Position numbers and translations under genes: made by a program. Below are positions 28,145-58,776 of a stretch of DNA of 64,000 bases, in pieces; positions within the stretch are counted from its first letter, which is position 1; each line of letters opens with the position of its first letter. The stretch comes from Schmidtea nova. Its lineage: Eukaryota. The notes below the pieces were generated by a model, which saw only the letters and a list, made by a program, of their open reading frames with translations, did no database searches and was not told the DNA's origin. Where the stretch lies: assembly GCA_044892505.1 (NCBI GenBank), contig CM097884.1, forward strand, positions 106,702,001-106,766,000, written 5' to 3'.

Positions 28145-29759
28145 AGATTTATTTAATTAAAATTTTATAAAAAGTGCCAAAATACTCAATTATTAAAACA
28201 CCAGTTAATTTAAATATCCAACTGATGTTATAATAAATTAAAAGATTTTTATAAAAATACACTTTATATTTATATAATCCTAAAATCCATAATTGATTCA
28301 GCGAAAATTAACCCAAATAAACCTAAAAAATCCTTTTTGCAAATCATAACATCCATTTCATTCATTAGTAACATTCATATATAATACTAAATAAAAATCC
28401 ATTCATTTCTCAACACACGCACTACATTGTTTCAATTATTAACATCTACCAGCATCAAACACCCATAAAATACACACCCAAAATTCATTTGATAACATGT
28501 GTCTGCATCATACATCCAGAAAATCTCACAAGCACTCATCCAATCTCACCCACCACTAAATTACTTGTTTTCATCCAGCATTCAATTCAACATACAGACA
28601 CATACAATAACATATAATCACATACAATCTCCTTGCAACTATCACCATGAAAATTCATAATAAACCTGTAAAAGTAACACAACATACAAACTCGAAATTA
28701 TAGCATCCCACATCATACATAAACATGCATACCTCCAACAAGACAATGCCAAAGTTTCATTCATTCAACAACCACAAAACATCATATTCATTTTATTATT
28801 TATTTTTATATTATAAAATAAGTCAAAAACTTCCGGTAAAAATCAGAACCAACACCCACAAAAAACAAAAACGATATTTATTTTTATTCAAAAATTTCAG
28901 TTAAAATAAAGTCAATAATTAACTATTAGTCTTTATTATAAAGTAAATTAAGCTTTCACATAAAATCAATAATCACGAACAATGGTTATTTTTATTATAA
29001 AGAGAATAAAAATTGTTTATCGATCAACGTTGCGCAAATACCGAGGAAAACTGATTGTCTGAGGAGTGAATGAGAAATCTCAAAATAAATTCCACTCAAA
29101 AACAGAAATTTGTGACGAACTATTAAAGGATTTCTTCGGAAAATGCCGGATCCTATTACTGATAATCCTGTTCACTTGTATTCTCATGGCTCTGACCTTT
29201 ATAGTTTTAGTTGATGAGAAGTGAAAAGATGCTTTCTGAATTCCGGTATTCAATTGGGAGGATATTGGCATAATATTTAAACAATTCATTTAAATATATT
29301 CCGATAGAAATCAATAGCTGATACTTAGTAGGAAGATTCGTAAATGTTTTATCGATTCAGATATTCCTTTAGAATTAGATAACTCTATTGGCAGCTTAGG
29401 ATTGACATTGAATAGTGAAATTGATTGGAACCATTGATCCCAGCTTCCGTGTTCAGATGCTATGAAAGTAATTAATTTCAGATTATCGATTTGAATTAAT
29501 AAATTTACTTATTTTTGCCAATAAATGAGCTTTCATAGAGAATTGGAGCAGCATTCAAATTTCCTAAAGGTTAAATAAAAGTTTAAACAAATGGAATATT
29601 AATAGAAATTTAAAGCAAGAAAATTATTTCAAGATATAAAAATAGGGAAAAACCTAAAGTAGAAATAAAATTATTTTCGTAAATTAAAAATTAAAGTTTT
29701 TATTTTATTTTAAATATGGGATAAAATTTTATTTTAGAATGCTTTAATTAACAATTACC

Positions 29760-35715: not shown

Positions 35716-35869
35716 AAAATTATGTAGATAACTGAATTAATTTATTAATGTACCCCGCCCTACCAAAAGTCTCCAGTCAGACAGTTATTTGCATATTGCA
35801 GTTTATAATGAACAGCACTGGAAACAAATGTCACAAACACACACGAATACTGAATGTCTGTAGTGCTGA

Positions 35870-36703
35870 GACAGTTGGTACTTCGTTTTATTACCTTTCA
35901 TCTGCATAACAAGGTGCACTCGTTTAGGAATTGTACTGACCAATTTTGCCAGGAAATCAGGGGAGATATGTGGCCATTCCTCATACAGATGCGTTTCCAG
36001 TTCGGAGACGTTACGTGTAATGGGAATCCTTTTGCGAACTCTTCTACCAAGGACGTCCCTCAGAAACTCAATAGGATTCAGATCAGGGCTTTGTGGAACC
36101 AAATCCAAAACGTTGATGCTGTGCTGCAGAAAAAATTCCTTCATAATGTGCGAAGTATGGATTGGTGCATTATATTGTTGGAAAATGAGCCTCTCAATTT
36201 CTGGGAGAAAGGGAACAAGCTCATTTTCCAGAATGACATGGTATTCCATTGACGTCATGTGATTACTGCACTTAACTAGAAGGCCAGTTCCACGAGCTGG
36301 GAAAAGACTCCAAAACATGATGGAGCTTCCTCCATATTTCACAGTTGGCTGAATGCAGTCAAGGTGAAATCGTTCTTCTACACGACGCCAGCAGAATTGC
36401 TGTCCATCAGATTTGAAAAGAGTGAAACGTGATTCATCACTCCAAATGACTGAGCGCCATTGTTCAACTGTCCAACTCCTTCTCTCCTGGCACCATTTAA
36501 ACGACTTCGACGAATTCTTTCTGTAATCAAAGGCTTCCTTGCGCAGTATATATCTTAGAAACCATGAAAATGTAATGCGCGACGAATGGTGGACATTCTG
36601 GGATGTACAGGGCCAGTGTTAAATGTGGACACTAACTTGGACAGAGGGAACCTTCGATGAGCCACCACAAGTTGTTTCAGCTGCCGTTGTTTACGGATGC
36701 TCA
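35870..36703 (-). pseudogene. Tc1 transposase, C-terminal part
   Basis: IWSDESRF, TVKYGGSSIMFW, FQQYNAPIH (catalytic D>Y), QSPDLNPIE; stop and frameshift present. Confidence 0.9.
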
Positions 36704-37841
36704 TGTTGAGGTTCCAAATATTTGCTATTTGCAATCTCAACTTGTTATTGGGGTGATTCTTATATAAATATCAAAAGCAAAGTTTGTTTTTCAAAATTTT
36801 ATTAATACAATAAAATTACTTTTTATTTCGTTTACAATTGTCTACGAATAACTCAAATTCTTTATTACACAAATTTAAAAAGAAAAAGTCGTATCAAATC
36901 AATTCTTGCAATTGAACCTATTGGGTGACTGTTATGTAGTGCGTGCTATATTTAATTGTGGATCCAATGTTTCTGATCCGGGTTTTAATAAGTTTTTCAA
37001 GATTGCCTTGAAAACTCAATTTGCGCTAATTTTAAATCTTGATTTTACACTAGATTTTAAAGCTAGGATTTTTTTGGGCCTCTTTACTGATTTTTTCTTT
37101 AGTTTATATAGTAAAATTTGGTATGGATAAATAATTTAATTTCCGGTCTGATATTAAAATATTATTAAATTTAGTTTTCAATTTATTCTATACTCTGCGA
37201 TTAAAATAATTATATTTCAATTTCCGTTCTTGTCGTGATATTAAAATTTTCAATTTATTCTATACTCTGCGATATAATTATATTTTAATTTCCGGTCTTG
37301 TCACGATATCAAAATTTCCAAATTATTTCGTATTCTGTGATATTAAAATATTATTTAGATTTGATTATTTTTAAACAACTGAATTAAATTATTTTATTTA
37401 TTGATCTGTTTGTTTTATATGTATATACAACTCATAAAATAATAAAAGGAATAAAATACACATCAAGATAAAAGGAATAAAATACACATCAAGATACACC
37501 TATTTTATATGTACATGCAAATCATAAACTACACATCAAGATATATTAAAAGAAAACAATTGTTTGTTGAGAAATGTCACAATAATAAAATGTCACAATC
37601 ATATTAATTTTCTTGATTTCTGTGATGGGAGTTGCAATCTTTGTTGAGAAATGTCACAATAATAAAATGTCACAATCATATTAATTTTCTTGATGGGAGT
37701 TGCAATCTTTGTTGTGTGGCTTGGATTGGTATTCTGTGTATTGGGATTCCGCGTAAATGTTGATCCTATAGCTGTTAGGCCCTGTCCTATAATATTTATT
37801 TAGGACAAATGCTTGGATGGGCTTCCCTCGATCATCCAACA
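36704..37841 (-). repeat. 3' LTR of the large Gypsy element
   Basis: TGTTG...CAACA; same length as 49332-50469 with no mismatch seen by eye. PPT GGGAGGAA adjacent (37842-37849). Confidence 0.95.
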
Positions 37842-39651
37842 TTCCTCCCAGGGCCGTCAAGGTAATGTCCTCATTACCTTTTTCACTCAGGACCATTTCA
37901 ATTTCTTTATCCTTTAATTTCATTATTGTTCTCTTGAATCCTTTCTTGATTGCCAGATTTAGGGTATCATCTTCCTCAATTCGTCTTCCGAAATGGGTAC
38001 ATAATTGTTTTTCCGTTATCTCTTTTTGGTCGGCACTTATAATGAAGCTAGGTTCTTCCTCCTCTTCTATTTCCATTTCAATGTCTGGTTCTGGTCCTAA
38101 TTCGTCTTCTGCTTTTATTTTACTCTCCATTTCTTTTGTGAAGTCTTCTTCGTCGTCTTCCTCAACTGAAAAATACTCTTCGTCCGAATCTAAATCGCAT
38201 ATGTCTTCTCTTTCTTTGTATTTTTGTATTAGTTGCGGTTCGTTTTTGATCATTATTTGATTTTCTGGTGGTCCTTCTTCTTTTGTAATCATTAGGTCGT
38301 CATCACCATCTTCATGTATTGTTTCTTCCATATCTGAATTTTCATCCATTATTATACTTTCTTCTTCGCTTTCCTTCAACTCTTCCATACATGATTTTCT
38401 GTTTTGCATCTGGTATAGGTCTCCTTTCATTTCGATATCGTCTGTTATTGGTGTATCACTTTGTAACGATGTTGAATCTGCTGAATTCCATTTTATTATA
38501 GGTTCCCATTTGTCTTCTACTATTCCATATATTACCTTTAATATTGTTGTTGTCTTTCTGGCAGAAAATGGCTCACTTTCTACTAATGCTTAATTCAGTC
38601 TCTTATCTTTGTACCATCTCTTATGGTATTTAATCACTTGGTAAGCTAAGTTAGATAGCTTAATTTTGAGTGGATCCACGTTTTTCACGAATGAGCACAT
38701 AAATTTATCTCCGGCCATTTCTCTCATTCCTGCAATGTTGTCTAGACCAAATGTTAGCATTTTTAATTTATCTATCATATCAAATCCTATGATTATTTTT
38801 CCCCACAACAGCTCTCTAATATCCCATAGAGCCTGGTACTCATCTTCATTTCCGACGATACTTTCTTTATTAACCATTGTTTTTTCTGTGCAGAAGTTTT
38901 TTATCTTCGTTCTTGGGGTTATCTTTTTGTTGTATATAATTTCACCGTTGTATTTTCTTATACATACTTCTACTGGTCGCTTGTTGTCATTTTTATCAAT
39001 TGCAAATTTTGCATCCAAGAACATAATTAGTTGGTGTCTCTCTTCTGTGGATAATTCATTGTGTGTGAAAGAGATTTTTTCATTTATCCAGCTTTGATCG
39101 TACCAAGGTTTTGAAGGGATTGGCGGCATTGATTGGAATGGATTTGATATCAGAGGGATATAGAGAATCTCGATTCCTATGACACACGGTAAGTTGTTCA
39201 TTTGGATTATGAGGTGATTAAAATCGTCTGGCATACTTCTGTTGTTTGTAATTGTTTTGATGATGATTGAACAATTACTTGTTGTGATTATTGGTACTTT
39301 ATGTTGGCAAATTGATACCTCGGTTTTTGTCATGTGGAATAGGATTCTATGTGGTACCTTTTTTCCTTCGATTACCGCTTTGTCGACATTAAGATGTTTT
39401 TCAAATGTGCCGATTAGGTCTTTTAATTTTGTTCGTCGAGCTTCATTAAATTTGATAATGTGTAGTTCTCTTTCTTCAATTTCCACTTTCATATCATTTG
39501 GGATGCATACTTGGTTTGGGAAGCTTCTGATTGTGATTGGATTTCCATCGGTACATATTTTGTTTTGTAGGGTTTTGTAAAAGTTTAGAGGGTGTTTGTT
39601 GATCATAGCCACATAGTTCATAGATCGAGAATAATTTGGCTCTGATTGCAT
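37681..39651 (-). CDS. ORF2 accessory protein (~656 aa if the TAA at 38590 is bypassed): unknown N-domain, degenerate DEDDh exonuclease fold, acidic tract, C-terminus in the 3' LTR
   Basis: The 502-aa and 249-aa ORFs share a frame and are joined by 53 open codons after a single TAA. Motif spacing parallels REX4/ISG20. The likely start is MQSEPNY at 39651. Confidence 0.7.
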
Positions 39652-40030
39652 TGTTAATTGAAGATACAAGAATCGGGATATTGATTGACAATAAAACACT
39701 AAGAATCGGGATATCGACTGATAAGTTAGTAAACGATAAAACACTAAGAATATAGATTGATAATGAGATCGAGATATGATTTTACGACTTGATTTGTGAT
39801 TGGATTGAAAATTGGAACGATTTGATTGGGAGTTGGTTTGATTGTTTTGATTGTGCTGAGGATTTGATGTAAAACTGGCTTTATTGGGTTGTTTGCCAAA
39901 TGGGTGACTTGTTTTTCTAAAAATAAAATGTAAATTTTTATGTTGAGAGCGTATTTCAGGTTTAACCTTATACGCTATTTTATAGATACAGATATATGTG
40001 ATTTTAATATATATTATTGACCAATTTAAC

Positions 40031-40240
40031 TTATACCAATGTAGACCTCGAATATTCACCTGGTATATATTTACCCAAATGGAAATGCCCTGGTACATTT
40101 CTGACCAGTTGGCTCCGATACCGCTGCCTTTTCCATTTGTACTTTTTATAAACTTGTACGCTAGTTATTAAAGCTAAAACTGCTAATGCTATTATTGATG
40201 TTGTGATGACATAAAAAGGCCAATGTGGATTTTTATCTTT
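40031..40240 (-). CDS. In-frame extension of the polyprotein beyond the TAA: TM helix, basic stop-transfer, tail ending STLV
   Basis: *KDKNPHWPFYVITTSIIALAVLALITSVQVYKKYKWKRQRYRSQLVRNVPGHFHLGKYIPGEYSRSTLV*. Confidence 0.7.
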   Translation of the reverse strand, partial: KDKNPHWPFYVITTSIIALAVLALITSVQVYKKYKWKRQRYRSQLVRNVPGHFHLGKYIPGEYSRSTLV

Positions 40241-43200
40241 TTAACGAAATGCTTGTAGTTCCTCTAAGTTATGTATCACTATTGGTCTTCCTTGCCTTAT
40301 TTTGATAGGTTCTTGTTTTTGTTTTTTGGCATTGTATTGTTTTTGGAGTTTGGCTATTCCAGTGCTTGTTGGTATTTCGTTTGTATGTAGTGTGGTATTT
40401 AGTCTATTATTTGATGTCGTTGTTGTGCTTTTTGTTATGTTTTGGTTTTTTATTATATCCTTGGGTAATTGTTCTGTTTTTATCTCTTTGCATCTCCATG
40501 TTGTTGTATCTGTGTTTCTCTGTATGCAGATTTTATATATTGTATTAGGTGTTAGTTTTGTGAAATTAATATAGTTTCCTCTTTCAATTTCGTTGGTTGT
40601 TCTGTCGTCCTTTCCTTTTATCATCTTTGGGTTTTTTCCATTCGTTGTTTGCATGTATAAATCAATTACTCCTCTATTTATGATAAATGCTCTAACTTCG
40701 TTTGTTGATATTTTTATTAATACTCTGTCAAATTCTATTGTTTCGGTTGAGCCAACAATTGTTATGATTGTTAAGAAGATAGCTGATATTATTAGTTTGT
40801 TATGAGATCTTAGATTATACTTGTGAGGTTTATCTATCGTGACCTCGGCTTCCGCCAACTTGCATCTGTTGACATGTACTACTATTGGATCCTCGTTTTT
40901 ATGCTTTTGTAAATGTAAATTCTCATTTATTACTTTTACTACTTCATATGGACCTTTATATGGTCTTGCTAATTTTGTTGTCTTTCCCTTTCCTACTTGT
41001 GGTGACATAAGTCTAACCTTATCACCTACTTTAAAGTTGTGTGGTTTACTATTTTTGTCGTAGTCGGCTTTGTATTGTTCTTGTCTATATTTGACTTTTA
41101 GATTGGCTACTTTATACACTTCTTGCAGTTTTTCCTGCATTAGTGTGACATAATCTGGTGCATCCAAATATTGTGATACTCGAGGTTCAAATATTGTATC
41201 TATTGGTGTTGCTGGTTCTCTTAAAAACATTAAATAATACGGCGAATACCCTGTTGTTTCGTTTGGAGTGATATTATGAATGTATGTGCATTGACTTATG
41301 TATTCGTCCCAATCATTTTGATTTTTTCCTACAAAAACAGCTAGTCTGCTTAGTAATGTCCCATTAAATCTTTCTACTAGTCCATCAGTTTGAGGGTGAT
41401 ACGCTGTTGTGTTGATCTTTTGCATGTTAAAAATATTAGCTACTCGTTTTATTAATTCACTAGTAAAATTTGTTCCTTTATCTGTTAATAATCTTTTGGG
41501 TGTGCCTATCTTGAAAATAATTTTTTCTATAAGCAATTTAGCAACTGTTTCTGCTGTTTCGTCTTTTGTTGGAAATGCTTCTGCCCATCTAGTAAAATAA
41601 TCACTAAATACTAGTATATGTTTATTCCCATTAATTGTAGTAGGTAATTTACATAGAAAATCCATTGCACATAGTTCCATTGGTGATGTTGTTGCTGGAA
41701 TGGGGTGTAACGGCGCTTTTGTTTTTGTACCTGTATTTTTTCTTGTTGCACATATTGTACACGCGTTACACCATCTCTTAACATCTTTCTTTAGTTCTTC
41801 CCAGTAATATTTTTGTAATAATCTACTTGCTGTCTTTCTAGATGATAAGTGACCTCCTAATGCTCCATCGTGATATTGTAGTAGGAGTATTTGTCTTAAT
41901 TTCTGAGGTACTACTATTAATTGCTTACCGTTGAAATCTTCTATTACTACTAATTTCTTTGATATTTTATATTTTGAATTGTTTTCTTTTCTGATTTCAT
42001 TCCTTATTCTATTGATCTCTGGGTCTTTCATCTGTTCCTCATATATATCTATTGGCTTTTCTGCTACTAGTGCAAATATTTCAAGTGCTCCTAATTCTGG
42101 TATTCTTGATAGTGCATCTGCGTTTTTATTTATTCTACCTGGTTTATATATAATTTTTAGGTGCATGTCTTGTATTTTCATTGCCCATTTAAGTAATCTA
42201 CTTGATGTATCTTTATGTTTCCATAAGCCTTCTAATGGTTTATGGTCTGTTCTTATTATCACTTCAGTTCCGTAGATGTATGGTTTGAATTGTTTTAGGG
42301 CAAATACTATTGCGTAACATTCTTTTTCTATTGTTGAATACCTCAGCTGTGCTCCTTTTAATGTTTTACTGGCATATGCTATTACGTAATCTTTCCCTTT
42401 CTCTTCTTCTTGGCCTAATACTGCTCCTACGGCTTTCCCGCTGGCATCTGTCATTACTATAAATTGTTTTTCGAAATTTGGGTATCTTAACACTGGTGCT
42501 GTTATCAATCTTTCTTTTAGTTTGTCGAATGCTTCTTGATGTTCTTTTGTCCATTTCTTTTGTATCTTGTTAACTTTATTGTTAATTTCTTGTACTATTA
42601 ACACGTCTTTGCATTCTCCTTTTGTTTTAATTCCCTTTGTTAGTTCTATTATAGGTGTTGCTATCTTTGCATAATCTTGTATGAATTTACGATAGTATCC
42701 TGTTAAACCTAAAAACCCTTGTACCTGTTGTACTGTTTTTGGTATTGGGAATTTCTTTACAACTTCTATTTTTTCTGGATTTGGTTTTATCCCTTCTACT
42801 GTGACTATATGCCCTAAAAATAGTGCCGAAGACTCTGCCCACTTACATTTGGTTGGTTTAATTTTTATCCTTGCTTTTCTTAGTCTCTCAAGTACGTTTG
42901 TTATATCTTTTAGATGTTCCTCGAATGTCTTTGATGATATTAATATGTCATCCATGTAAACTGCGCAGTGTTGTACATTTACTAATATTGTGTTCATTAG
43001 ACGTTGAAATGTGGCTGGCGCATTAGTTAATCCGAAGGGTAATCGTGTGTACTCATATAAACCATCCTCAATAACAAATGCTGTTTTTTCTGCGTCCCCT
43101 TCTTCCATTTGAATTTGCATATACCCCTTATTCGCATCAATGACTGAAAAATACTTAGCATCCCTAAGTTTATCATATTGCTCTTGTGCTTTTGGGAATG

Positions 43201-46200
43201 GATATGAATCTTTTACTGTTACATCATTTAATTTACGATAGTCAATGCACATTCTTATTTCTCCGTCTTTCTTTTTGACGGGTACAATGGGTGATGCCCA
43301 CTGTGAAAAACTTTGTTTTATTACACCTGCGTCTTTTAATTCTTTAATTTGTCGCTTTATCTCCTCTCTTAGTTTGTATGGTACGCTATATGGTCTTTGT
43401 TTTATTGGTCTTGCATTGCCCGTATCTATTACATGTTTGATTATGTCAGTATCTCCTAAATCAAATTCATGTTTTGCAAAAACATCGCTGTATTCATCTA
43501 TTAGTGTCTGTAATTGTGCTTGTTGTGTTATTGTTAGGTATTTATTATTGATTTTCACTTTGTCGTATGATTTTATACTATTTGTCTTACTAGGTTCGAC
43601 CACTCTTTTGCCGTTATCATTTATCACACTTGTCTCGCTGACTTCATACGTTTTCTCTAATTTGCCTTTGAATAGTTTTCCCAATTTTGTGCCTTTGTGT
43701 ATTTTTATATTACATTTTTCATAATTCGCTATTCTTAATGGGATTATTCCCTTTTTTGGAATTACGCATTCATTAGTTAACATTATATTTTGTGTAATTG
43801 CCGTTTCTGGCTCGAAAATAAAAGTGTCCTCACTTTTGACGTTAACTTTTATGGGGATTATATGATCACACTCATATTCTAGTTCGAATGCTTCTAATGC
43901 AACAACTTCCGTGAACTTGGACTTATGTTTGATAGCTTTTCTTTTAATCGTGTTATCCGTTAAGTCTATGATGCAGTTATTCAGCTTGTTGAGTATATCG
44001 ATCCCTAGTATACATATGCTATTGCATTCTTGTACTACTTTAAATATGTGGTGTATTACTTGTTCTGATGTTTCAACTACTAATTCAATATCTCCTTTTA
44101 GTGGAATGTAGTGTGCTGATAGTGTTACTACTTTATCCGTTGTTTTCATAATATTTCTCTTTTCACCATCTGTAAGTTGATCTTCCCTAATTAGGGACGT
44201 TGCTGCTCCAGTATCTACTAGTGCATTTATGATTATATTGTTTATAATTATTTTAAGTCTTGGCCTTGCTTCGTTTGCTGTCTCTAATTGCTCCATCATT
44301 TCGACTTCCAAGCTATAACAACCATATATTTTTTTGGGTTCACAGTAACAATTCTTACTTTCTCTAGGAATTTTAATCTCTATATTTTCTTGTAACTCTT
44401 TTAATTGTTCTCTTTGGTTTTCATATAGTCCTTGTTGTGGTGCATTTCCTTCATGTGATATATGCGTTTTAACTATTTCCTCATTGTTTTCATCATCTAT
44501 CAATATTTGCCTTTCTTCATTCCTTTGGATTTTTATTAAACGTATTTCTTTATCATGTTTTGCCGTAATCAGGTATTTGGCTACAAACGGGCATAAACAT
44601 GCTAGTAATTTATATGAATTTCCGAATACTTGTTTCAGCTGTCGTAGTGATACTAAAGAAGAACAAACCATTTTTAGTAAAGCAACCGTATAATAAATTC
44701 CTAAAATTGTAGAGAACATGTTTCCAAGGACTGCAAAATATCCCCATATACTATATAATACTTTGTATGCTACTTTTTTGAAATACTCTTTTGATAACAA
44801 CACGTCAAAATTGTAATTTCCTCCGTAACTTCCTTCGATAATTTTGTTTACCATTATTGACAGTATTCTTTCTTTTTCGTTTGAAAATAACATGTGTTTT
44901 CTTGCACTTTCTATAGCTTCTCTCGTATATATGCCATTGCTATATATATCGTTGATTTCTTTAAACTCCAATCTTTTTTCAAGCTCTATGAGTTCTAATT
45001 TGAGTGGTTTCATCGCCTCTTTCCTATCTGACATAGATATCCACATTTCGTCATTTATTTTGTATAATGGATCCAATAAATTAGTGCATTTTTCTATTTT
45101 TCTTGGTACATATGTTTTTTCTGTTAGTATTCTAGTAATTGGTTGAAGGTATACCCTTTCTCCTTTGTATATTACTGGTAACTCATTTGTGCACTGATTG
45201 TTTGTTGCCAATGATACACTAACAGGTTTGCATTGAAATGTCTGTATCACTTCTCCTACTATCCTGGCAAATGTTCCTTCTTCTGAGAAGATTATTGGTG
45301 CCATCAAATCTGGGTTTGTTACCGCGACTGCCATTTTTGTCCTTAATATTTCTCTGTTGAGTTTGCAATCGCTCATGATTGTTGATTGATATACTTTATC
45401 TAATTGCACTAGTTGATTATGATAGAAAAAATCTATTTTATTGTTGAAATATGATGCGAGTTTGACGTCGAATTTATTTACTTTTTGTTTTGCATCTTTG
45501 ACTTCTTCTTTGCTTATGTATATCCCTTCATAATTAGTTTGTATTATTTCCTTACCACATTTTACACTTTTCCTTTTACTAACAAACCTCATTGCTTCGT
45601 TTTCAGATTCTGACATATATATTGTTGGTGTATCTTTTTCTTGTACAATTGTTGTTTTCCTTTTTTGATCTCTCACCCTTTTTGAGTCTACTTCTGTGAA
45701 CTGTTTTCCCTTGATTTCCCTAAATTTTAATGATTTTAATTTTGTTAACTGACAATCATATTTATCTATTTTGTATATTAGCATTGATTCTCCTGTATCG
45801 CAATAAGATTCTTCTAATGTACAAAATTTGTATATCATCATTTTCTTTGAGCTGCTGTCGAATGATGCTTTGAACTTTCTCAGTTCTACCATGTAGTGTC
45901 TCCTTACTACAACATTACTCAGTTTTTCGCCCCATATTGTATATTCTCCTCCTTCACAATATCCTCCTTTTGATGTCCATCCCACGACATTTACATCTTG
46001 TCTCATTTTTGCCCCTATCCTTGCTTCTAATTCTATTCCATTATGACCGCTATATTTTACTTTTTTTGTTTTAAATGCATCTTCACACTCTATTGGTGAC
46101 AATATTACTGCTTCGGGTGTCCACGTAGGTTTTAACACTGTTCTTGCCCCAACATGACATATATATGCTTCCTCCTGATACTTTACTATGCACTCTTTGG

Positions 46201-49090
46201 CCTCTGTATGAATAAAGTCTGATTCTTGATAAACATGGAATATTTGAGGCTCTGACATGATTAATTTAGTTGGATTTGCTTCAGGGCAATTTTCAACATC
46301 TAACAGTGAGTATTTTTGTCCCCACTTTGGATTTTGACAATCATATGCTACCATTGCATTGCCTCCCTTGATTAAATCTAATAACAAAGTGATAATGACT
46401 ATTACTATGGAGGTTATCGATTTACTCTCTGTCTTTGGTTTTACTGTTGCTTTCTTTATTAATTGTTTTATTACCTCATCTGTATCACTCTCTTTATTCG
46501 TCGTATCTTTATCATATAATACTTTCCATCCTCCTTTCTTTTTTATCCATGGTATTGCCTCTACTTTCAATCTTTTAAACATTATTGTTGCTACTTTTTC
46601 TAATTGCTCTTTTGGATTTTCCTTTATGAGCTTTTTATATCTTGCGGCCAAGTATGCCATGGCCGTTATTATTTTATCTTTATCTATCCCTGTATTAAAC
46701 ATGATTTTTAACACTGTTTTTTCATTTGCTTCCTCTGTAGCTAGTTCTTTAGTATCCTTTTTAATTAACATCATCCTTTCAGTTATATTTTCAATAAGTA
46801 CTGTTGGCTTTGTTTCTGGAAATAGCTTAATATTCATTGCTTTTATTACTTCTTTTATTTTGTTTACGTCATTATTATCGTCTTGATACTCTGGTTGTTC
46901 ATGTTTATGTTGATTTGCAATCTCTCTTAATCGTTCTGCTGTCTTCCTATTCTCCGATTTTTCTATTATTTCTGATTTTCGAGGTCTTCCTCTACCTCGT
47001 TTTGATATTTCTGCATCTTTTGTTTTTGCTTCCTCAGCTATTCTTTCTATTGTTTCTTGTAAGTTACTATACTTTTCATCTATAGGTTTAAATATAATTT
47101 CTTCATCCATTACTGATTTCTTTGTTTCGCTAGGTGATTTATCCCATAGCCTAAATAATCTATCAAAATCGTTTTCTTCATTTATACTCAACTCAACCGA
47201 CGGTACTGGCGTCATTATTTCATTGATCATTTGTTTTTCTACTGTGGCTACCACAATATTATCACTTACTGGGTTTATCCCATAATCGATTAAGTACTCG
47301 TCACTTAATAATTCTATTCCGTTAAAATATAATTTTATTACATCTTTCTCTCCTATGGTTCCTGGCCATTTGGCTCTTACCATTCGTTTTAATTTGCTCA
47401 CTTTAGTGCAAGTATGCATCTTTTGTTTAATACTAAAAAAATAATTATCATTTGATTCAATCGTTACATTTAGTGTTTCATGCAATTTTTCATTTTTTCT
47501 TATATATTCTCCATAACATTTCAACATCTCTTTTATTTCTATTTCTAATTCAAATACTCTCGTTACATTTTGTCTCTTTACCATCATTGGTATCAAATTT
47601 CTAAGCTTGTCTAATTCAATCCCATTAACTTGTATTTTATTGATTATTCTCAGTGTTTCGTTATCCTCAAATGGTTGTTTATACAATATCTCTTTAAATT
47701 CTTCTATCAATTCTTTTTGTTTATTTTCTTCTGTGAGAAATATTTCATCTGCTTCTCTAATTTCTTTTAACTCATCATTATCGATATCTACTTCATTTGT
47801 AAAAGTACTAAATTCATTTATAGACATTTCAAGCTTTCTCTCAATAAGTCTTCCATATTGCGTTTTAAATTCTTTTAATTCTTCTCTTAATATGTTTATT
47901 TCTTTATTTGCTGATTCAAGCTCAGCGCTATTTACCTGCTTTATCTCAGGCTCATTTTTAAATCTTACTCTTATCGGTGAATCTGCTCGTGGTTTATTAT
48001 ATACCTTTGCTAGGTGACCATACTTTTGGCAATTGTAACATTTTATTTGTCCATTAAAATTCACTTTATCCCTACCATCATTATTATAAGTATTTCGCCT
48101 CACTGGGCTATCTTGTCTATTTCTCGAATTATCTCTGTATCTATTATCTCTTCTATTATATTCGAAGCGACTGTCTCTATTATTTCTATTATATCCACTG
48201 TAACTGTTATAACCAGAGCGATTATCTCTAAAATTATTATCTCTGTCAAAACGGTTGTCTCTAAAACTATCTCTATTATTATTCCCTTTATAGTTATCTT
48301 TAAAATTATCTCTATTTCTATTATCAAAATTTTTATTTCCTGGACTGTTAAACCTTCCCTTGTTTTCAGGTGATTGGCTTCTATTAGGACTAAATTTTCT
48401 TCTATTATTAACAAAATTCAAATATAATTGTTTCATTTCTTCCGAAGGGATACTATCATCTTTACTTTTCAACTCAGGTTTTACCTCAAGTTGCTTTTCA
48501 ATTTCTACAGCGTCTATCTCTGGTCTAAATCGATCTCTTTGTATTGCTTCTATGCGTTTTGCTTTTTGTACTAATTCATTTAAGTCTTCATATTCAATCG
48601 TAATTAATGCTTTGTATAAATATTTTTGGATTCCGTTCCAAAACTGATCCTCGATTAACCTACTAGTGTGATCTCCTGCACCAAATGCCTTTTTTGCTAA
48701 TTCTGTTATCGTGTATATATATTCACCTACTGATTCTCTTGCTCCTTGGTATCTACTTCTAAATTTTTGAACATTTATTTTTTGTAAGTCTCTATCTATT
48801 ACTATTTCTTTTCTAAGGTTTGTAACTAACTCTTGATAATTAATGCCTTTACATGCCAAATTATTGTATGCTTGTAATGCGTATCCTTTTAAGTATAATG
48901 GGATTCGTTGTTTTAATTCATTTGTTTTCCATCCGCAAGCCTCTGCGTATTGTGCGATTTCGGCAAAAAAGTCGTCGAACTTTTCAGGGTCTCCTTTATA
49001 TGATTCTATTGGTAGTGTTTTTATAAAATTATGACTGTTTCCTATGTTATCGTTATTACTGTTGTTACTACTGCTTGTACTATTACTCAT
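40241..49090 (-). CDS. 2949-aa polyprotein: Gag - Ubl - AT-hook - Bcl-2-like - envelope glycoprotein - PR - RT - RH - IN - FN3
   Basis: Gag N-terminus (YKGDPEKFDDFF..GW), CYNC..GH, LYFNG..L.DYGI, RGRGRPRK, WIKKKGGW, AYDC..Cys-rich..TM, LVDTGA, YMDD, TDAS, HHCC, DDE, GPY, LTPNTIYKICI. Confidence 0.95.
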   Translation of the reverse strand: MSNSTSSSNNSNNDNIGNSHNFIKTLPIESYKGDPEKFDDFFAEIAQYAEACGWKTNELKQRIPLYLKGYALQAYNNLACKGINYQELVTNLRKEIVIDRDLQKINVQKFRSRYQGARESVGEYIYTITELAKKAFGAGDHTSRLIEDQFWNGIQKYLYKALITIEYEDLNELVQKAKRIEAIQRDRFRPEIDAVEIEKQLEVKPELKSKDDSIPSEEMKQLYLNFVNNRRKFSPNRSQSPENKGRFNSPGNKNFDNRNRDNFKDNYKGNNNRDSFRDNRFDRDNNFRDNRSGYNSYSGYNRNNRDSRFEYNRRDNRYRDNSRNRQDSPVRRNTYNNDGRDKVNFNGQIKCYNCQKYGHLAKVYNKPRADSPIRVRFKNEPEIKQVNSAELESANKEINILREELKEFKTQYGRLIERKLEMSINEFSTFTNEVDIDNDELKEIREADEIFLTEENKQKELIEEFKEILYKQPFEDNETLRIINKIQVNGIELDKLRNLIPMMVKRQNVTRVFELEIEIKEMLKCYGEYIRKNEKLHETLNVTIESNDNYFFSIKQKMHTCTKVSKLKRMVRAKWPGTIGEKDVIKLYFNGIELLSDEYLIDYGINPVSDNIVVATVEKQMINEIMTPVPSVELSINEENDFDRLFRLWDKSPSETKKSVMDEEIIFKPIDEKYSNLQETIERIAEEAKTKDAEISKRGRGRPRKSEIIEKSENRKTAERLREIANQHKHEQPEYQDDNNDVNKIKEVIKAMNIKLFPETKPTVLIENITERMMLIKKDTKELATEEANEKTVLKIMFNTGIDKDKIITAMAYLAARYKKLIKENPKEQLEKVATIMFKRLKVEAIPWIKKKGGWKVLYDKDTTNKESDTDEVIKQLIKKATVKPKTESKSITSIVIVIITLLLDLIKGGNAMVAYDCQNPKWGQKYSLLDVENCPEANPTKLIMSEPQIFHVYQESDFIHTEAKECIVKYQEEAYICHVGARTVLKPTWTPEAVILSPIECEDAFKTKKVKYSGHNGIELEARIGAKMRQDVNVVGWTSKGGYCEGGEYTIWGEKLSNVVVRRHYMVELRKFKASFDSSSKKMMIYKFCTLEESYCDTGESMLIYKIDKYDCQLTKLKSLKFREIKGKQFTEVDSKRVRDQKRKTTIVQEKDTPTIYMSESENEAMRFVSKRKSVKCGKEIIQTNYEGIYISKEEVKDAKQKVNKFDVKLASYFNNKIDFFYHNQLVQLDKVYQSTIMSDCKLNREILRTKMAVAVTNPDLMAPIIFSEEGTFARIVGEVIQTFQCKPVSVSLATNNQCTNELPVIYKGERVYLQPITRILTEKTYVPRKIEKCTNLLDPLYKINDEMWISMSDRKEAMKPLKLELIELEKRLEFKEINDIYSNGIYTREAIESARKHMLFSNEKERILSIMVNKIIEGSYGGNYNFDVLLSKEYFKKVAYKVLYSIWGYFAVLGNMFSTILGIYYTVALLKMVCSSLVSLRQLKQVFGNSYKLLACLCPFVAKYLITAKHDKEIRLIKIQRNEERQILIDDENNEEIVKTHISHEGNAPQQGLYENQREQLKELQENIEIKIPRESKNCYCEPKKIYGCYSLEVEMMEQLETANEARPRLKIIINNIIINALVDTGAATSLIREDQLTDGEKRNIMKTTDKVVTLSAHYIPLKGDIELVVETSEQVIHHIFKVVQECNSICILGIDILNKLNNCIIDLTDNTIKRKAIKHKSKFTEVVALEAFELEYECDHIIPIKVNVKSEDTFIFEPETAITQNIMLTNECVIPKKGIIPLRIANYEKCNIKIHKGTKLGKLFKGKLEKTYEVSETSVINDNGKRVVEPSKTNSIKSYDKVKINNKYLTITQQAQLQTLIDEYSDVFAKHEFDLGDTDIIKHVIDTGNARPIKQRPYSVPYKLREEIKRQIKELKDAGVIKQSFSQWASPIVPVKKKDGEIRMCIDYRKLNDVTVKDSYPFPKAQEQYDKLRDAKYFSVIDANKGYMQIQMEEGDAEKTAFVIEDGLYEYTRLPFGLTNAPATFQRLMNTILVNVQHCAVYMDDILISSKTFEEHLKDITNVLERLRKARIKIKPTKCKWAESSALFLGHIVTVEGIKPNPEKIEVVKKFPIPKTVQQVQGFLGLTGYYRKFIQDYAKIATPIIELTKGIKTKGECKDVLIVQEINNKVNKIQKKWTKEHQEAFDKLKERLITAPVLRYPNFEKQFIVMTDASGKAVGAVLGQEEEKGKDYVIAYASKTLKGAQLRYSTIEKECYAIVFALKQFKPYIYGTEVIIRTDHKPLEGLWKHKDTSSRLLKWAMKIQDMHLKIIYKPGRINKNADALSRIPELGALEIFALVAEKPIDIYEEQMKDPEINRIRNEIRKENNSKYKISKKLVVIEDFNGKQLIVVPQKLRQILLLQYHDGALGGHLSSRKTASRLLQKYYWEELKKDVKRWCNACTICATRKNTGTKTKAPLHPIPATTSPMELCAMDFLCKLPTTINGNKHILVFSDYFTRWAEAFPTKDETAETVAKLLIEKIIFKIGTPKRLLTDKGTNFTSELIKRVANIFNMQKINTTAYHPQTDGLVERFNGTLLSRLAVFVGKNQNDWDEYISQCTYIHNITPNETTGYSPYYLMFLREPATPIDTIFEPRVSQYLDAPDYVTLMQEKLQEVYKVANLKVKYRQEQYKADYDKNSKPHNFKVGDKVRLMSPQVGKGKTTKLARPYKGPYEVVKVINENLHLQKHKNEDPIVVHVNRCKLAEAEVTIDKPHKYNLRSHNKLIISAIFLTIITIVGSTETIEFDRVLIKISTNEVRAFIINRGVIDLYMQTTNGKNPKMIKGKDDRTTNEIERGNYINFTKLTPNTIYKICIQRNTDTTTWRCKEIKTEQLPKDIIKNQNITKSTTTTSNNRLNTTLHTNEIPTSTGIAKLQKQYNAKKQKQEPIKIRQGRPIVIHNLEELQAFR

Positions 49091-49310
49091 GTTGTAGATT
49101 GTTCTATTTCTTAATTGATGTATTATTTCAGGTGCTGTATCTATGTTTATTTTATTAGCTTTTTAATGGTTTTAGTTCTTTATATGTTTGTATATCTTTG
49201 AATTTCTACTTTGGTCAATAATATTTAGATAAATATATTTTCCCGATATATATTACAATATCCCTCTGATCGCAATTCCTATCCCCCAATTGATATTATA
49301 ATATTTTATT

Positions 49311-49329
49311 GTCCCGGTTCGCGGCACCA
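49311..49329 (-). promoter_or_regulatory. Primer binding site TGGTGCCGCGAACCGGGAC
   Basis: 2 nt inside the 5' LTR boundary and complementary to a CCA-ended tRNA 3' end (Phe- or His-like; identity uncertain). Confidence 0.85.
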
Positions 49330-49331
49330 AA

Positions 49332-50469
49332 TGTTGAGGTTCCAAATATTTGCTATTTGCAATCTCAACTTGTTATTGGGGTGATTCTTATATAAATATC
49401 AAAAGCAAAGTTTGTTTTTCAAAATTTTATTAATACAATAAAATTACTTTTTATTTCGTTTACAATTGTCTACGAATAACTCAAATTCTTTATTACACAA
49501 ATTTAAAAAGAAAAAGTCGTATCAAATCAATTCTTGCAATTGAACCTATTGGGTGACTGTTATGTAGTGCGTGCTATATTTAATTGTGGATCCAATGTTT
49601 CTGATCCGGGTTTTAATAAGTTTTTCAAGATTGCCTTGAAAACTCAATTTGCGCTAATTTTAAATCTTGATTTTACACTAGATTTTAAAGCTAGGATTTT
49701 TTTGGGCCTCTTTACTGATTTTTTCTTTAGTTTATATAGTAAAATTTGGTATGGATAAATAATTTAATTTCCGGTCTGATATTAAAATATTATTAAATTT
49801 AGTTTTCAATTTATTCTATACTCTGCGATTAAAATAATTATATTTCAATTTCCGTTCTTGTCGTGATATTAAAATTTTCAATTTATTCTATACTCTGCGA
49901 TATAATTATATTTTAATTTCCGGTCTTGTCACGATATCAAAATTTCCAAATTATTTCGTATTCTGTGATATTAAAATATTATTTAGATTTGATTATTTTT
50001 AAACAACTGAATTAAATTATTTTATTTATTGATCTGTTTGTTTTATATGTATATACAACTCATAAAATAATAAAAGGAATAAAATACACATCAAGATAAA
50101 AGGAATAAAATACACATCAAGATACACCTATTTTATATGTACATGCAAATCATAAACTACACATCAAGATATATTAAAAGAAAACAATTGTTTGTTGAGA
50201 AATGTCACAATAATAAAATGTCACAATCATATTAATTTTCTTGATTTCTGTGATGGGAGTTGCAATCTTTGTTGAGAAATGTCACAATAATAAAATGTCA
50301 CAATCATATTAATTTTCTTGATGGGAGTTGCAATCTTTGTTGTGTGGCTTGGATTGGTATTCTGTGTATTGGGATTCCGCGTAAATGTTGATCCTATAGC
50401 TGTTAGGCCCTGTCCTATAATATTTATTTAGGACAAATGCTTGGATGGGCTTCCCTCGATCATCCAACA
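49332..50469 (-). repeat. 5' LTR of the large Gypsy element
   Basis: Matches the 3' LTR and is followed by the PBS. Confidence 0.95.
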
Positions 50470-50473
50470 CTCA

Positions 50474-50663
50474 GAAGTTTAGGGCGGCCTGAACGTTGCT
50501 TGTTGACATGTGTCTGCTCCTGGCGGTACTTCCTTAGGAAGTAGTTAATAGTTCCTTTGGGATGGCCAGTCAATGCAGCAGTTTTACTCTGACTTTTTCC
50601 ACAAAAGTAACATCCGTAAATAATACTTTTCTGAAAGTTTGTAAGCTTTCTCCGAGTAGCCAT
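50474..50663 (-). pseudogene. Tc1 transposase N-terminal HTH part
   Basis: MATRRKLT...RSGRPKLLS continues in frame with IRKQRQLKQL on the other side of the insertion. Confidence 0.9.
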
Positions 50664-53201: not shown

Positions 53202-54105
53202 AGTTACAATCTCTTCATAATTCATAACAATTTAACAAATTAAAATATATATTTTTAAAACAGTGCCAACTTGCTAATATTTAAACAAGGTTAATTATTG
53301 AACATCACTCTCCTCTTCATTTTCTTTGAATCTCTTCAGCCATTCAATTCTTCTTGATTTGATTGAGTTTGGAAATTGTAATTCAACTTGTCTTGGTGAT
53401 AAGAATTTTAAAATTTTGTAAGGTCCTTCATATTGGATTCCCTCCTTCTTTCGTCTATGTGGTTCCGAGCGAACTAATACTTTCTCTCCCACCGTGAAAA
53501 CTCGAGTACCCCGGTGTTCTAAATCTCTATTTTGCATTGTTGTAGCTGCTTTCTCTAGATTAGTTTTTGTTTTATCCACGATTTCTTCTTTGCTTTTTTG
53601 TATATGTCCTAATCTAGAATATAAATTAATCTTCCGACCATATACAATTTCAAAAGGTGAGAAATTTGTTGAGTTTTGTATTGTAGCATTCAAACTAAAT
53701 TCAATCTTCGGTAACAATCTGCACCAATTATTTTCTGTTCTAATCTCTGTCAATGATGTTGCCAACATGTCCCGAACTGTTCTTATGATTCGTTCTGCTA
53801 AACCATTTGATTGATGTTGATATGGTGAACTGAATTCTTGTTTTATACCAAATTTCTCCATCCAATCACGAAACATCGATCCTTCAAAAATTCTTCCTCT
53901 ATCTGTAAGAATGCTTTCTGGTCTACCAAAACGATATATCCAATTATTTAAAATGACATTCAAAATTGTTGATTCATCCTGCGTACTTGTTGCTGATAAG
54001 CTGACCAATTTACTAAAACGATCTATTATCACTATCACATATTTCTTACTTGCTTTTGTCTCCATATATGCAATATCCACTACTATCTGTTCTAAAAACC
54101 GTTCT
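53202..54105 (-). mobile_element. 5'-truncated relative of the compact Gypsy: integrase plus ~108-bp 3' LTR (53202-53309)
   Basis: Integrase similar to 23722-24897 (FLEQIV.D.AYME, QEFSSPYQHQSNGLAER), PPT AAGAGGAG, AGT...ACT LTR ends. Confidence 0.8.
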
Positions 54106-54118
54106 CCTGTACTACAGC

Positions 54119-54404
54119 CAACAAAATCACCAACATTTTTAATCAAACAGATTTGCCTATCCGTCCAACGTTCATAACCTCCGCACCGTTAAAATCACAA
54201 CTCCGAAAGCCACCAATTTCCAACATCTGCAAACATAAATGTCTTTGTCGTTCCACAACCCGATGCTTTTGCTTTTCCAAAAATATAGTATATAAACTTT
54301 CTTGCCAAAAATGTGACGCTACTTACATAGGAGAAACACATAGAACTTTTCGCACCCGACTTAATGAACACACTAAAATCAAAACCAGTTTGTGCACAAA
54401 ATAA
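54119..54404 (+). mobile_element. Penelope-like element fragment (GIY-YIG endonuclease)
   Basis: C..KNIVYKLSCQKCDATYIGETHRTFRTRLNEH; near-identical copy at 63760-64000. Confidence 0.88.
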
Positions 54405-56400: not shown

Positions 56401-57732
56401 ATATTTTACGTTTTTCGATGTTTCATTTCTACAGATTCGGGTGGTTGAGGCACAATAACTTCATTTTCTTCATTTCTAAAAATATTTTTTTTATTAAATC
56501 TTTTAATATAATAGTAAATTACATTTCTCATTGATCCTCTCCAATAAATGGTATTATTGATTTCGACAAAGGTTCTGAAATATCTTCATAAATCATGATT
56601 TTTTTTATATTTGTAAATCCCTTAATTAAAGATTGCCACTTAAATTATGTTCATGTGTTTGTATTTTTTATTATAAGATTTTTGTGTGTTGTGTAAGTGT
56701 GTTTTTTGACCTAATTTATCTTTCTTCTTTTCTGTAGTATGGCCCCGTAATTTATGACTGTGCTTTTCATCTTTGTCCTTATCTACAGTAGGTATGTATA
56801 TTTTTTTATATAATTTAATTTGTTATTATAGAATCCTTAATTGTTGCCTGCCTGGCTCTTAATTTATGACTTTTGGTGTATTTGGTATACAAAAAAAATT
56901 TCACTAATAATAAAAAATTCTTTAATTTAATTTACAGAATAAAAATAATAAATTTATTTTGTATATATTTTTAAAGGCACGAAATAGAGCTAGACAAGCA
57001 TAATATTTTGGTAATTTCTGATAGACGCACGTAAAAAGGTTCCCTTCCACTATAATATATACCAATATATATACTATAATATATACTTCCATAATTTCAT
57101 CAAAATTAAAATTTCCGCAGCTGATTTGTACTAGTACTCATGACCAAGTTATATGGTAGCATTACAATATAATGTCTATTATTTTAATTCTATGCTTTTT
57201 TCATGCACAATTTAAAAAAATACATTGCCTACATAATTAAATTTTCAATTACAAAAATCAAAATTATCCTCTTTCAAAATTTCAAACGAGTAATAATATA
57301 TTAATAATTTATAGTAATAATATTTGATAAACACTAAGAAATTTCTCAGATGCTACCTTTGATAATCTTAGCAACAAAATTTTATCAAACTCTATTTTTC
57401 TATGGAATTACTCATGATTTATTATTACATAATTTATTTGAACATAATTCGAAAATTAAAATTTCGAAACTACCAATTTTATCGATTTAAATTTTAATCT
57501 GATACAGGCCTAATTATCTTCAAAATGAGTCATTACCAATTACAAATTGCAATTCATACACCATTTCCTATATAGATAATGCATGAAACAATGTAATAAT
57601 AACGACATGTGCGCACACATACACACAATGCACGTCAGGATGCACAGGATTGGTATTCCTTTTTTGTTTGTTTCCGTTTTATTTTTTTTAATAATTTTGT
57701 ATAAAGAATAACTTAGTATAATTTTAGCACAA

Positions 57733-58776
57733 ATGATCTCCGGAATATTTTCATTTCGGGCGATATCTAAACCGTGCTTTTCCAAACGAATTGTGATAAT
57801 AATTTTTATTTTTATTCTATTGCTTTTTATTTATTTTTTAACCGTCATTAGCGGAACACACGAAAGGTATGATTCTTTTCAAGATTTCTCCTATCCGTCC
57901 GATGTAAATTTCTATAAAATTCTCCAACTTAACAATACAGACAGCATACCACAATTATTTAAATACGAACCAAAATTGATCAATGAAAAAAACATTAAAA
58001 AACATAACGAAACCGACAACATTGTTATTATCGTCAAATCATCTGTTGGTAATCTCGACAAACGCAATGGAATCCGTCAAAGTTGGGCCAGCAAAAACTG
58101 CAAAACAACTCATCAGTATCAAGTCTATTTTGCACTTGGTCAAGTTTCAATTACGCACAATGTCGACTCATTAATTCAAACGAAAATTGATCAAGAATCG
58201 ACTACTTTTAATGACATCGTACAATTCAATTTCATTGATAACTATGTAAACAACACTTACAAAGTGAGAGCAATTATGGATTATTTTGTTAAATATGAAA
58301 GTGAAGTGCCCTATTTGGTTGTTGTTGATGATGATTATTTCATTGATCCGTCGGTTTTGGTTGATACGATTGAAAACGAAATCACAATAGAGCAATATCC
58401 AAGATTTCTAGGTGGGTATGTTTGGTTTCAAGCGAGGCCGATTCGAAGTTCATTTTCCCAGTGGTATGTGTCATACAAAACTTACAGATATAACTACTAT
58501 CCTCCATATCCAGCGGGCGGGTTTATGTTGATTTCCAATCCCATGGCGAGAACATTGAATAAACTGTTGCCATATTTGGAATACAATTCAATCGATGATG
58601 TTGTGATCGGCATTCTCATGTTTAAACTGAACATTTATCCAAATCATTTACGAAATATCCACATGTATAAACCAGATCCTGTTCCAAAGAATTTATTGGC
58701 TTGCCATAGATTGTCTGCAAATTTGCATTTGTTTTGGACAAAAAATCAGTATCAGAAAAAATGTATTAAAAAGTAG
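57733..58776 (+). CDS. Beta-1,3-galactosyl/GlcNAc-transferase (GT31, brainiac/B3GALT-like), single exon
   Basis: Type II TM anchor, IIVKSS..N..KRNGIRQSW, DIVQFNFIDNYVNNTYK, VDDD, YPPYPAGG, IDDV.IG. Confidence 0.93.
   Translation: MISGIFSFRAISKPCFSKRIVIIIFIFILLLFIYFLTVISGTHERYDSFQDFSYPSDVNFYKILQLNNTDSIPQLFKYEPKLINEKNIKKHNETDNIVIIVKSSVGNLDKRNGIRQSWASKNCKTTHQYQVYFALGQVSITHNVDSLIQTKIDQESTTFNDIVQFNFIDNYVNNTYKVRAIMDYFVKYESEVPYLVVVDDDYFIDPSVLVDTIENEITIEQYPRFLGGYVWFQARPIRSSFSQWYVSYKTYRYNYYPPYPAGGFMLISNPMARTLNKLLPYLEYNSIDDVVIGILMFKLNIYPNHLRNIHMYKPDPVPKNLLACHRLSANLHLFWTKNQYQKKCIKK

Follow-up and report, generated by a model that had tools for sequence, protein, structure and literature searches.

The 64,000-nucleotide stretch of Schmidtea nova DNA studied here (assembly GCA_044892505.1, contig CM097884.1, positions 106,702,001 to 106,766,000; hereafter the window, in whose numbering all coordinates are given) harbors on its minus strand a Ty3/gypsy long terminal repeat (LTR) retrotransposon of 13.8 kb (36704–50469). 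Its first open reading frame (ORF1) encodes, in one frame and in this order, Gag, a ubiquitin-like domain (UBL), a Bcl-2-like domain, a hydrophobic helix, the envelope glycoprotein (Env) and Pol. On the basis of sequence and predicted structure we propose that the element carries a diverged Bcl-2 fold directly ahead of the Env signal peptide, that this helix would serve as the membrane anchor of the Bcl-2 domain after cleavage, and that the anchored product would dampen host cell death. The probability of this reading as a whole is put at about 0.5. Family A denotes the family of the window element, while genome loci carry the prefix L and protein homologs the prefix P; searches with Bcl-2 and Env models revealed four further families, B to E, each with Bcl-2 ahead of the same helix.

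The original prediction for this DNA, made from the letters alone, had placed Bcl-2 homology (BH) motifs between 46500 and 46945, followed by a hydrophobic helix and an AYDC motif. The peptides that it quoted are all found in ORF1 in the order given, i.e., AERLREIANQ at 46939–46910, IMFNTGIDKDKIITAMAY as BH1 at 46705–46652, PWIKKKGGWKVL as BH2 at 46552–46517, the helix from 46417 onward and AYDC at 46348–46337, while the lower limit of 46500 had to be given up because the helix starts about 85 nucleotides beyond it. The BH1- and BH2-like motifs exceed chance. In the Pfam comparison that had been suggested, PF00452 matched amino acids (aa) 812–879 of the window copy with an E-value of 6.5e-7 and 30.3 bits, slightly below the cut-off of 31.4 bits, and none of 2000 shuffled sequences came close. 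A profile derived from eight host Bcl-2 genes only gave 27.9 bits for the window segment, 11.0 bits for the best of the 2000 shuffles and 0.2 bits for the reversed sequence, and a profile of six element copies matched Bcl-xL (E 9e-7). Among 30 retrieved genomic loci above the PF00452 cut-off, 16 are copies of these elements. Profile–profile comparison with the host Bcl-2 genes reached 96% over 68 columns, covering α4 to α8 only. A single-sequence phmmer search against the PDB is suggestive at most (best E 0.14), the Bcl-2 region yielded no matches as query in word-indexed protein searches, and a search of the ESM Atlas gave no usable match.

Structure prediction was performed with AlphaFold using an alignment of 28 rows, 21 from elements and seven from cellular Bcl-2 proteins. 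In the best model the core (residues 41–165) reaches predicted local distance difference test (pLDDT) values of 76–91 and forms a helical bundle around a central hydrophobic α5. A bundle of this kind was what the original prediction had staked its claim on, and a VIA structure search, which is independent of Foldseek and covered 48,161 chains, agrees with it: Bcl-2 folds fill the top 36 of 50 rows, the best with Z 13.1, a root mean square deviation of 3.1 and 129 aligned residues, and Z is down to 5.2 at the first unrelated row. Every match listed by Foldseek against the PDB likewise belongs to the Bcl-2 family. As the structural matches begin at model residue ~38–41, opposite α1 of the targets, the fold is delimited to aa ~758–887 (46502–46891), with DVNKIKEVIKAMNIKLF as α1 and the BH3 slot at aa 788–808 (46801–46739). 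The amphipathic, BH3-like helix AERLREIANQ (46910–46939), originally read as BH3, thus lies N-terminal to the fold: it corresponds to model residues 22–31, has a pLDDT of ~50–57 and is not covered by the alignments with Bcl-2 structures. A helix akin to it occurs at the same place in P0007, and families C to E differ; its family-B counterpart is one that we take to resemble a BH3-only helix minus the Asp. We have little doubt that the Bcl-2 domain and its fold are real.

Within the fold, BH2 carries a W-x4-GGW signature that is almost invariant among element copies. The original description of the NWGR motif of BH1 as degenerate is borne out, this position reading DKDK in the window copy. The sequence 'NWDR' in L023 was considered as an ancestral state of BH1 and rejected, since its TGG Trp codon is CGG in all four sister copies; this Trp is probably a change that followed insertion.

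With regard to the hydrophobic helix (aa 916–936; 46355–46417), spacing was analyzed in 13 homologs, 11 of them with BH2, the family-E row being left out. The hydrophobic core lies 18–22 residues N-terminal to the Env start in all 13, while the BH2-to-Env distance is variable, ranging between 52 and 72 residues among the 11 homologs with BH2. Just before the Env start, small residues were noted by eye at position −3 in 13 and at position −1 in 12 of the 13 sequences, a signal-peptidase pattern that places the predicted cut after Ala936. Furthermore, the Pfam match to Env (PF24664) starts within the helix, and P0001 and P0002 possess helix and Env while Bcl-2 is absent. Because of spacing, cleavage pattern, Env match and presence in relatives lacking Bcl-2, the helix is read as the signal peptide of Env; as judged from these comparisons it belongs to Env and is not a captured Bcl-2 tail anchor. 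At the same time it sits C-terminal to the Bcl-2 domain at the distance of a tail anchor, the linker having a length compatible with a tail anchor in all 11 homologs with BH2, and basic residues occupy the predicted cytosolic side of all three helices measured. The earlier idea of a tail anchor that doubles as Env signal peptide therefore survives in part: a topology with a retained anchor is plausible, rubella virus providing a precedent, whereas the anchor would be Env's own.

In our own analysis, P0001 and P0002 were initially taken to indicate that the helix is older than the capture of Bcl-2. This argument was withdrawn, as the Env tree favors loss and the reverse transcriptase tree leaves the root open. 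In the Env tree, P0001 groups with the Bcl-2-bearing P0014 (support 98/96), so that P0001 probably represents a loss of the Bcl-2 domain with the helix retained. P0002, although labeled as a protein from a Flavobacteriaceae metagenome-assembled genome, belongs to this group as a gypsy polyprotein with Env and Pol and probably stems from animal DNA in a bacterial bin.

Searching the genome with the element yielded matches of 84–100% identity for all 148 scored candidates (of 2502), about 30 of which, counted by eye, have frames exceeding 3050 aa. From 1.84 billion representatives, 13 proteins were returned: six fragments in which BH2 is followed by a hydrophobic helix and then the Env start, one more with Gag and UBL upstream, three short fragments devoid of context and three cellular-looking proteins. 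Phylogenetic analysis together with cellular Bcl-2 proteins, as the original prediction had proposed, resolved 25 domains into 14 element rows on one side of a branch with 95/93 support and 11 cellular rows on the other; branches are long, and P0005 and P0006 are labeled as element-type by similarity alone. The tree fits a single old capture of Bcl-2 by this element lineage. Among host Bcl-2 loci, L013 is Bcl-xL-like and L015 is nearest to schistosome Bcl-2 among solved structures; a clear pro-death BH3 partner was not found among the loci examined. A small expanded set of divergent host Bcl-2-like genes was also observed (L018, L020, L024, L032, L038, and L041), three of which (L018, L020, and L032) adjoin the element group in the tree with 84/84 support.

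Ratios of non-synonymous to synonymous substitution rates (dN/dS), obtained by simple site counting over aa 760–884, are 0.13 for the window copy versus L049, 0.23 for family A versus B and 0.12 for C versus D, while the flanking linkers gave 0.69 and 0.82 for A versus B. The comparison of A with C, which share ~18% identity in the domain, is saturated and hence uninformative. By this measure the Bcl-2 domain is under purifying selection, though looser than that on Env or reverse transcriptase. L049 (L049:807-9998) is a mosaic: relative to the window copy, dS amounts to 0.56–0.68 across Bcl-2, linker and signal peptide, drops to 0.21 in Env and is less than 0.05 in Gag, reverse transcriptase and integrase. 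The block of Bcl-2, signal peptide and Env start is far more diverged than Gag, reverse transcriptase and integrase, which indicates that the domain and the start of Env recombine as one piece.

The proposed mechanism would begin with co-translational insertion, by which Gag, UBL and Bcl-2 would stay in the cytosol, the signal-peptide helix would span the membrane and Env would become lumenal; the membrane helix of Env would then return Pol to the cytosol, and a further signal-like helix with a small membrane protein would come next. Signal peptidase would cut after Ala936. This enzyme cuts on the lumenal side, so that the helix would stay with the upstream product. The element's own protease is assumed to free Bcl-2 from Gag, whereby the helix would become the C-terminal membrane anchor of the Bcl-2 product. 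The anchored Bcl-2 would dampen host cell death, either at the endoplasmic reticulum (ER) or after re-routing to mitochondria, and, with W and G of the NWGR motif gone, would act via a remodeled groove or another surface. In rubella virus, the E2 signal peptide forms the C-terminus of the capsid protein, which blocks Bax, and is needed for mitochondrial targeting but not for the anti-apoptotic effect (PMC3040668). There, too, an anti-apoptotic upstream polyprotein product keeps the signal peptide of a glycoprotein as its C-terminal anchor (PMC3040668); the rubella capsid differs in having no Bcl-2 fold and no homology to the window protein, and the analogy is one of mechanism only. Retention of the helix on the Bcl-2 product appears reasonably probable. 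Anti-death activity, to which we give at best even chances, is the least certain step. A farther-reaching version, namely that one ancient Bcl-2 capture was rebuilt into a working tail-anchored death suppressor through its placement ahead of the Env signal peptide, that a membrane-bound Bcl-2 is left behind whenever Env is made and that the upstream BH3-like helix is a possible latch cut by the element protease, is rather doubtful.

A number of observations weigh against the proposal. As regards the fold, only one of five AlphaFold models reached a pLDDT of 69.5, the other four attaining 48–60; the model from the single sequence is poor (pLDDT 51), and the cellular proteins, making up seven of the 28 alignment rows, may have pulled the prediction toward Bcl-2. 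The Foldseek E-value is only ~2e-3, with TM-scores of 0.5–0.6 by target length, and the N-terminal half of the domain does not align in sequence with the host Bcl-2 profile. As regards activity, the BH1 signature is lost in nearly all copies: of the 20 element rows that can be aligned, one (P0006) has the Gly and one (L023) the Trp, and the BH3 slot on α2 is degenerate, reading IENITERM in the window copy and ADNIGNRI in family B. Gly substitutions in NWGR abolish the binding of Bax by Bcl-2 and Bcl-xL, and the loss of NWGR makes it doubtful that the window domain binds BH3 in the canonical way; among viral Bcl-2 folds, some dispense with NWGR and still bind BH3 helices, whereas others target signaling. 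Furthermore, signal peptides direct insertion into the ER and not into mitochondria, and the predicted cut after Ala936 depends on a reading by eye. The two intact-looking relatives without Bcl-2, P0001 and P0002, imply that the domain is dispensable for this element type. Finally, dS is close to saturation in two of the three dN/dS comparisons, A versus B and C versus D.

An alternative is that the domain has a structural role, the uncut Gag-UBL-Bcl-2 portion hanging on the Env signal peptide and bringing capsids to Env, with the Bcl-2 fold as a matrix-like module that binds membrane or Env and has no part in cell death. The single reading frame forces a tethered topology until proteolysis, NWGR is lost, Bcl-2, signal peptide and Env start recombine as a unit in L049, and the rubella E2 signal peptide is cited as required for capsid localization and assembly in titles of references in PMC3040668. 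Yet P0001 and P0002 hold the same layout without Bcl-2, which shows that tethering does not need the domain, and what related elements carry as cargo (UBL, IAP and TRAF) suggests host modulation; we consider a purely structural role unlikely. Even less likely, in our view, is that BH3 binding was given up in favor of blocking innate-immune or stress signaling via another surface. The poxvirus proteins A46, A52, B14, and K7 are signaling blockers of this type that have a Bcl-2 fold and are not known to bind BH3. Both BH1 and BH3 are degenerate in the window domain, the fold matches include A52 (Z 7.8), B14 (Z 6.9) and A46 (Z 6.1), and the element has ISG15-like and ISG20-like folds as well; against this, cellular and herpesvirus- or African swine fever virus (ASFV)-type Bcl-2 structures match clearly better (Z 10–13) and the W-x4-GGW of BH2 has hardly changed.

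It is improbable that the element protease or signal peptide peptidase frees a soluble domain from the helix, which would make the anchor coincidence incidental. Such a product would be in line with the variable and weakly constrained linker of 30–40 residues after BH2 (dN/dS 0.82, A versus B), with a helix that tracks Env in spacing and history and with the finding that rubella capsid lacking the signal peptide is still protective (PMC3040668); no conserved cleavage motif was seen in the aligned linkers, however, and these keep within tail-anchor range in all 11 homologs. That the domain is a mere vestige, an old captured fragment kept by nothing other than the need for an open frame, is highly improbable: the low identity between families A and C and the loss or absence of the domain in two relatives would agree with it, whereas the dN/dS of the domain is far below that of the flanking linkers and its core is conserved across 14 elements and foldable in the model.

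Returning to the proposal of an Env-anchored death suppressor, viral Bcl-2 proteins offer an obvious comparison. ASFV A179L, Kaposi's sarcoma-associated herpesvirus Bcl-2, BHRF1, M11, iridovirus GIV66 and poxvirus M11L/F1L resemble the window domain in fold (Z 6–12, among the top rows from BFVD), in their short α1-α2 loop and in their divergence from cellular Bcl-2. These proteins are encoded by free-standing genes of DNA viruses and have tail anchors of their own. In contrast, the window domain is part of the polyprotein of a reverse-transcribing element, and its anchor would be the signal peptide of Env.

The element itself belongs, as a compact representative, to a group of elements described before, and its Gag-UBL-BCL2-env-pol layout has already been published. 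According to Arkhipova and Yushenova (2019; PMC6431247), planarian Burro elements contain Gag, a PF11976 domain and a BCL2-like domain, with env placed between gag and pol in the same frame; the Burro BCL2 motif is credited there to Grohme (2018), and Burro/GYPSM1 is traced to Jurka (2007) and Grohme (2018). Shared traits are Gag with a CCHC knuckle, the PF11976 UBL, the BCL2-like domain, in-frame env ahead of the protease and matches to fusion proteins of mononegavirus type (PMC6431247). On the other hand, the window element, with 13.8 kb, LTRs of 1.1 kb and an ORF1 of ~3000 aa, is far from the more than 30 kb and 4873–5140 aa given for Burro (PMC6431247) and likewise outside the Burro size range of over 25–30 kb with long LTRs. 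Pfam matches to the BIR, MATH and ankyrin cargo of Burro are missing from ORF1 to ORF3, while the ISG20-like ORF2 and the post-integrase membrane protein of the window element are not mentioned in the section on Burro in PMC6431247. Pfam detected no dUTPase in the window element at E 0.1, the published dUTPase-like domain between protease and reverse transcriptase of Burro having been an HHpred call. With the domain order shared and size as well as BIR/MATH/ankyrin cargo differing, the element is classified as Burro-like, not Burro proper. The present analysis contributes a corrected boundary of the domain along with evidence for the helix as Env signal peptide and for a single origin followed by loss. 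In the literature searched, neither a functional assay of the BCL2 domain of Burro nor a proposal of a signal peptide as its anchor came to light; Grohme (2018), the Burro1 study in Dev Cell (2026; doi 10.1016/j.devcel.2026.03.001) or supplements may cover either or list similar compact families.

GAG-ENV-POL errantiviruses with an Env of the herpes simplex virus gB type are described from Nematoda, Bryozoa and Platyhelminthes (PMC13524379) and share with the window element the gene order and an ectodomain between signal peptide and membrane helix; the strings 'bcl', 'apopto' and 'burro' have no occurrences in the main text of that report. Troyka, as portrayed in PMC12440569, was set aside as unrelated. 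B-IAP of Burro1 is reported, as related second-hand in PMC13465017, to protect planarian stem cells: it is anti-death cargo of a planarian gypsy element, though a functionally tested caspase inhibitor with BIR and RING, i.e., another domain (PMC13465017). The genome is rich in IAP-bearing LTR elements, a type described as planarian-specific (PMC13465017); a BIR search matched 150 of 150 scored candidates, mostly with frames of 399 aa. One LTR element of 26 kb (G000:C1:369550127-369576170; L066–L069), with LTRs of 4662 nucleotides that are 99.98% identical, has frames for helical module plus UBL/protease/ankyrin, a RING-TRAF-MATH-like protein, BIR plus RING and a coiled coil, and no frame of at least 250 aa for reverse transcriptase, integrase or env; it apparently represents a non-autonomous Burro1-like family.

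The remaining features of the window element conform to a Ty3/gypsy element of GAG-ENV-POL type, i.e., LTRs bounded by TG and CA, a short target duplication, a primer-binding site, the order protease, reverse transcriptase, RNase H and integrase and a fusion glycoprotein between gag and pol. The 5′ LTR (49332–50469) and the 3′ LTR (36704–37841) each comprise 1138 nucleotides, are 100% alike over their full length and start with TG and end with CA, and the element is flanked by a 4-bp target duplication (CTCA); identical LTRs with intact ends and target duplication point to a young insertion. A sequence resembling a primer-binding site (49312–49329) begins with TGG two nucleotides beyond the LTR.

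ORF1 (40241–49162; 2973 aa; first Met at 49090) starts with a Gag capsid-like region (aa 48–215; 48518–49021) that shares 39% identity between families A and C; the aligned regions of families C and E match Retrotrans_gag, while the Pfam scan gave no Gag match in the window copy's own sequence. A zinc knuckle follows at 48005–48046 (zf-CCHC, E 0.0038) that is degenerate in the window copy, and an in-frame stop at 40241–40243 ends ORF1 ahead of the last membrane helix; both of the two other family-A copies checked differ from the window copy at these two sites, their knuckle being complete. From alignments, a conserved helical module (aa 478–560; 47483–47731) precedes the ubiquitin/SUMO-like domain (aa 561–645; 47228–47482; PF11976, E 0.014), the profile of which has ISG15 as best PDB match (E 7e-4) and which lacks a C-terminal di-Gly. 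For the helical module, the profile search gave no sequence match in the PDB, and a TFIIS-N/LEDGF-like fold, suggested by resemblance to the eye, was dropped for lack of support from this search. Module and UBL always occur as a pair, which is duplicated in families C to E (e.g., L054:2045-3019). An AT-hook-like RGRP motif lies at 46973–47002 (Pfam AT_hook, E 0.065), with comparable motifs in P0004 and P0007.

Downstream of the Bcl-2 domain, Env (44423–46405; aa 920–1580; PF24664, E 1.3e-87) is a fusion glycoprotein of Monjiviricetes type with a C-terminal membrane helix at aa ~1480–1503 according to hydropathy. Its ectodomain (aa 940–1470; 44753–46345) contains 14 Cys and no N-glycosylation sequon in 531 residues, which is unusual for a fusion glycoprotein. 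Pol (41393–44272) comprises, according to Pfam, protease (DTGA), reverse transcriptase (YMDD), RNase H and integrase. The part after integrase (40031–40795) consists of the second signal-like helix, an ectodomain labeled by eye as FN3-like and the final membrane helix; such a type-I membrane module, ending in a basic tail, was also found in families B to D, P0001 and P0002. ORF2 (38590–40164) has an ISG20/REXO4-like exonuclease fold at 38593–39039, with profile matches to ISG20L2 (E 8e-10) and ISG20 (E 5e-9) in the PDB; families C and D retain acidic and His motifs of catalytic type that have degenerated in A and B, and relatives were located at L055:1603-2100, L057:1464-1943 and L044:1276-1740. 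ORF3 (37681–38589) is acidic, follows in frame after ORF2, with which it forms a single frame in family B, and has no Pfam match.

The element is inserted into a Tc1-like transposase remnant (flanks 35803–36703 and 50470–50490, with a DDE_3 match). Elsewhere in the window, a second, small gypsy element (23592–28223, minus strand) has identical terminal repeats and Gag-like, protease-reverse transcriptase-RNase H and integrase frames, and a galactosyltransferase frame (57712–58776, plus strand), a DDE_1 transposase (20566–21483, minus strand) and an isolated integrase fragment (53295–54188, minus strand) were recognized.

If the farther-reaching version of the proposal is true, the element would encode a functional retrotransposon Bcl-2 and provide a second anti-death strategy in planarian stem cells besides the IAP of Burro1. 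An active domain would mean that a retrotransposon uses the host-survival trick of large DNA viruses, and this in animals whose stem cells reportedly gain from a transposon-borne IAP. The compact, young and high-copy family would offer convenient material for assaying the long-noted BCL2 domain of Burro as an isolated protein.

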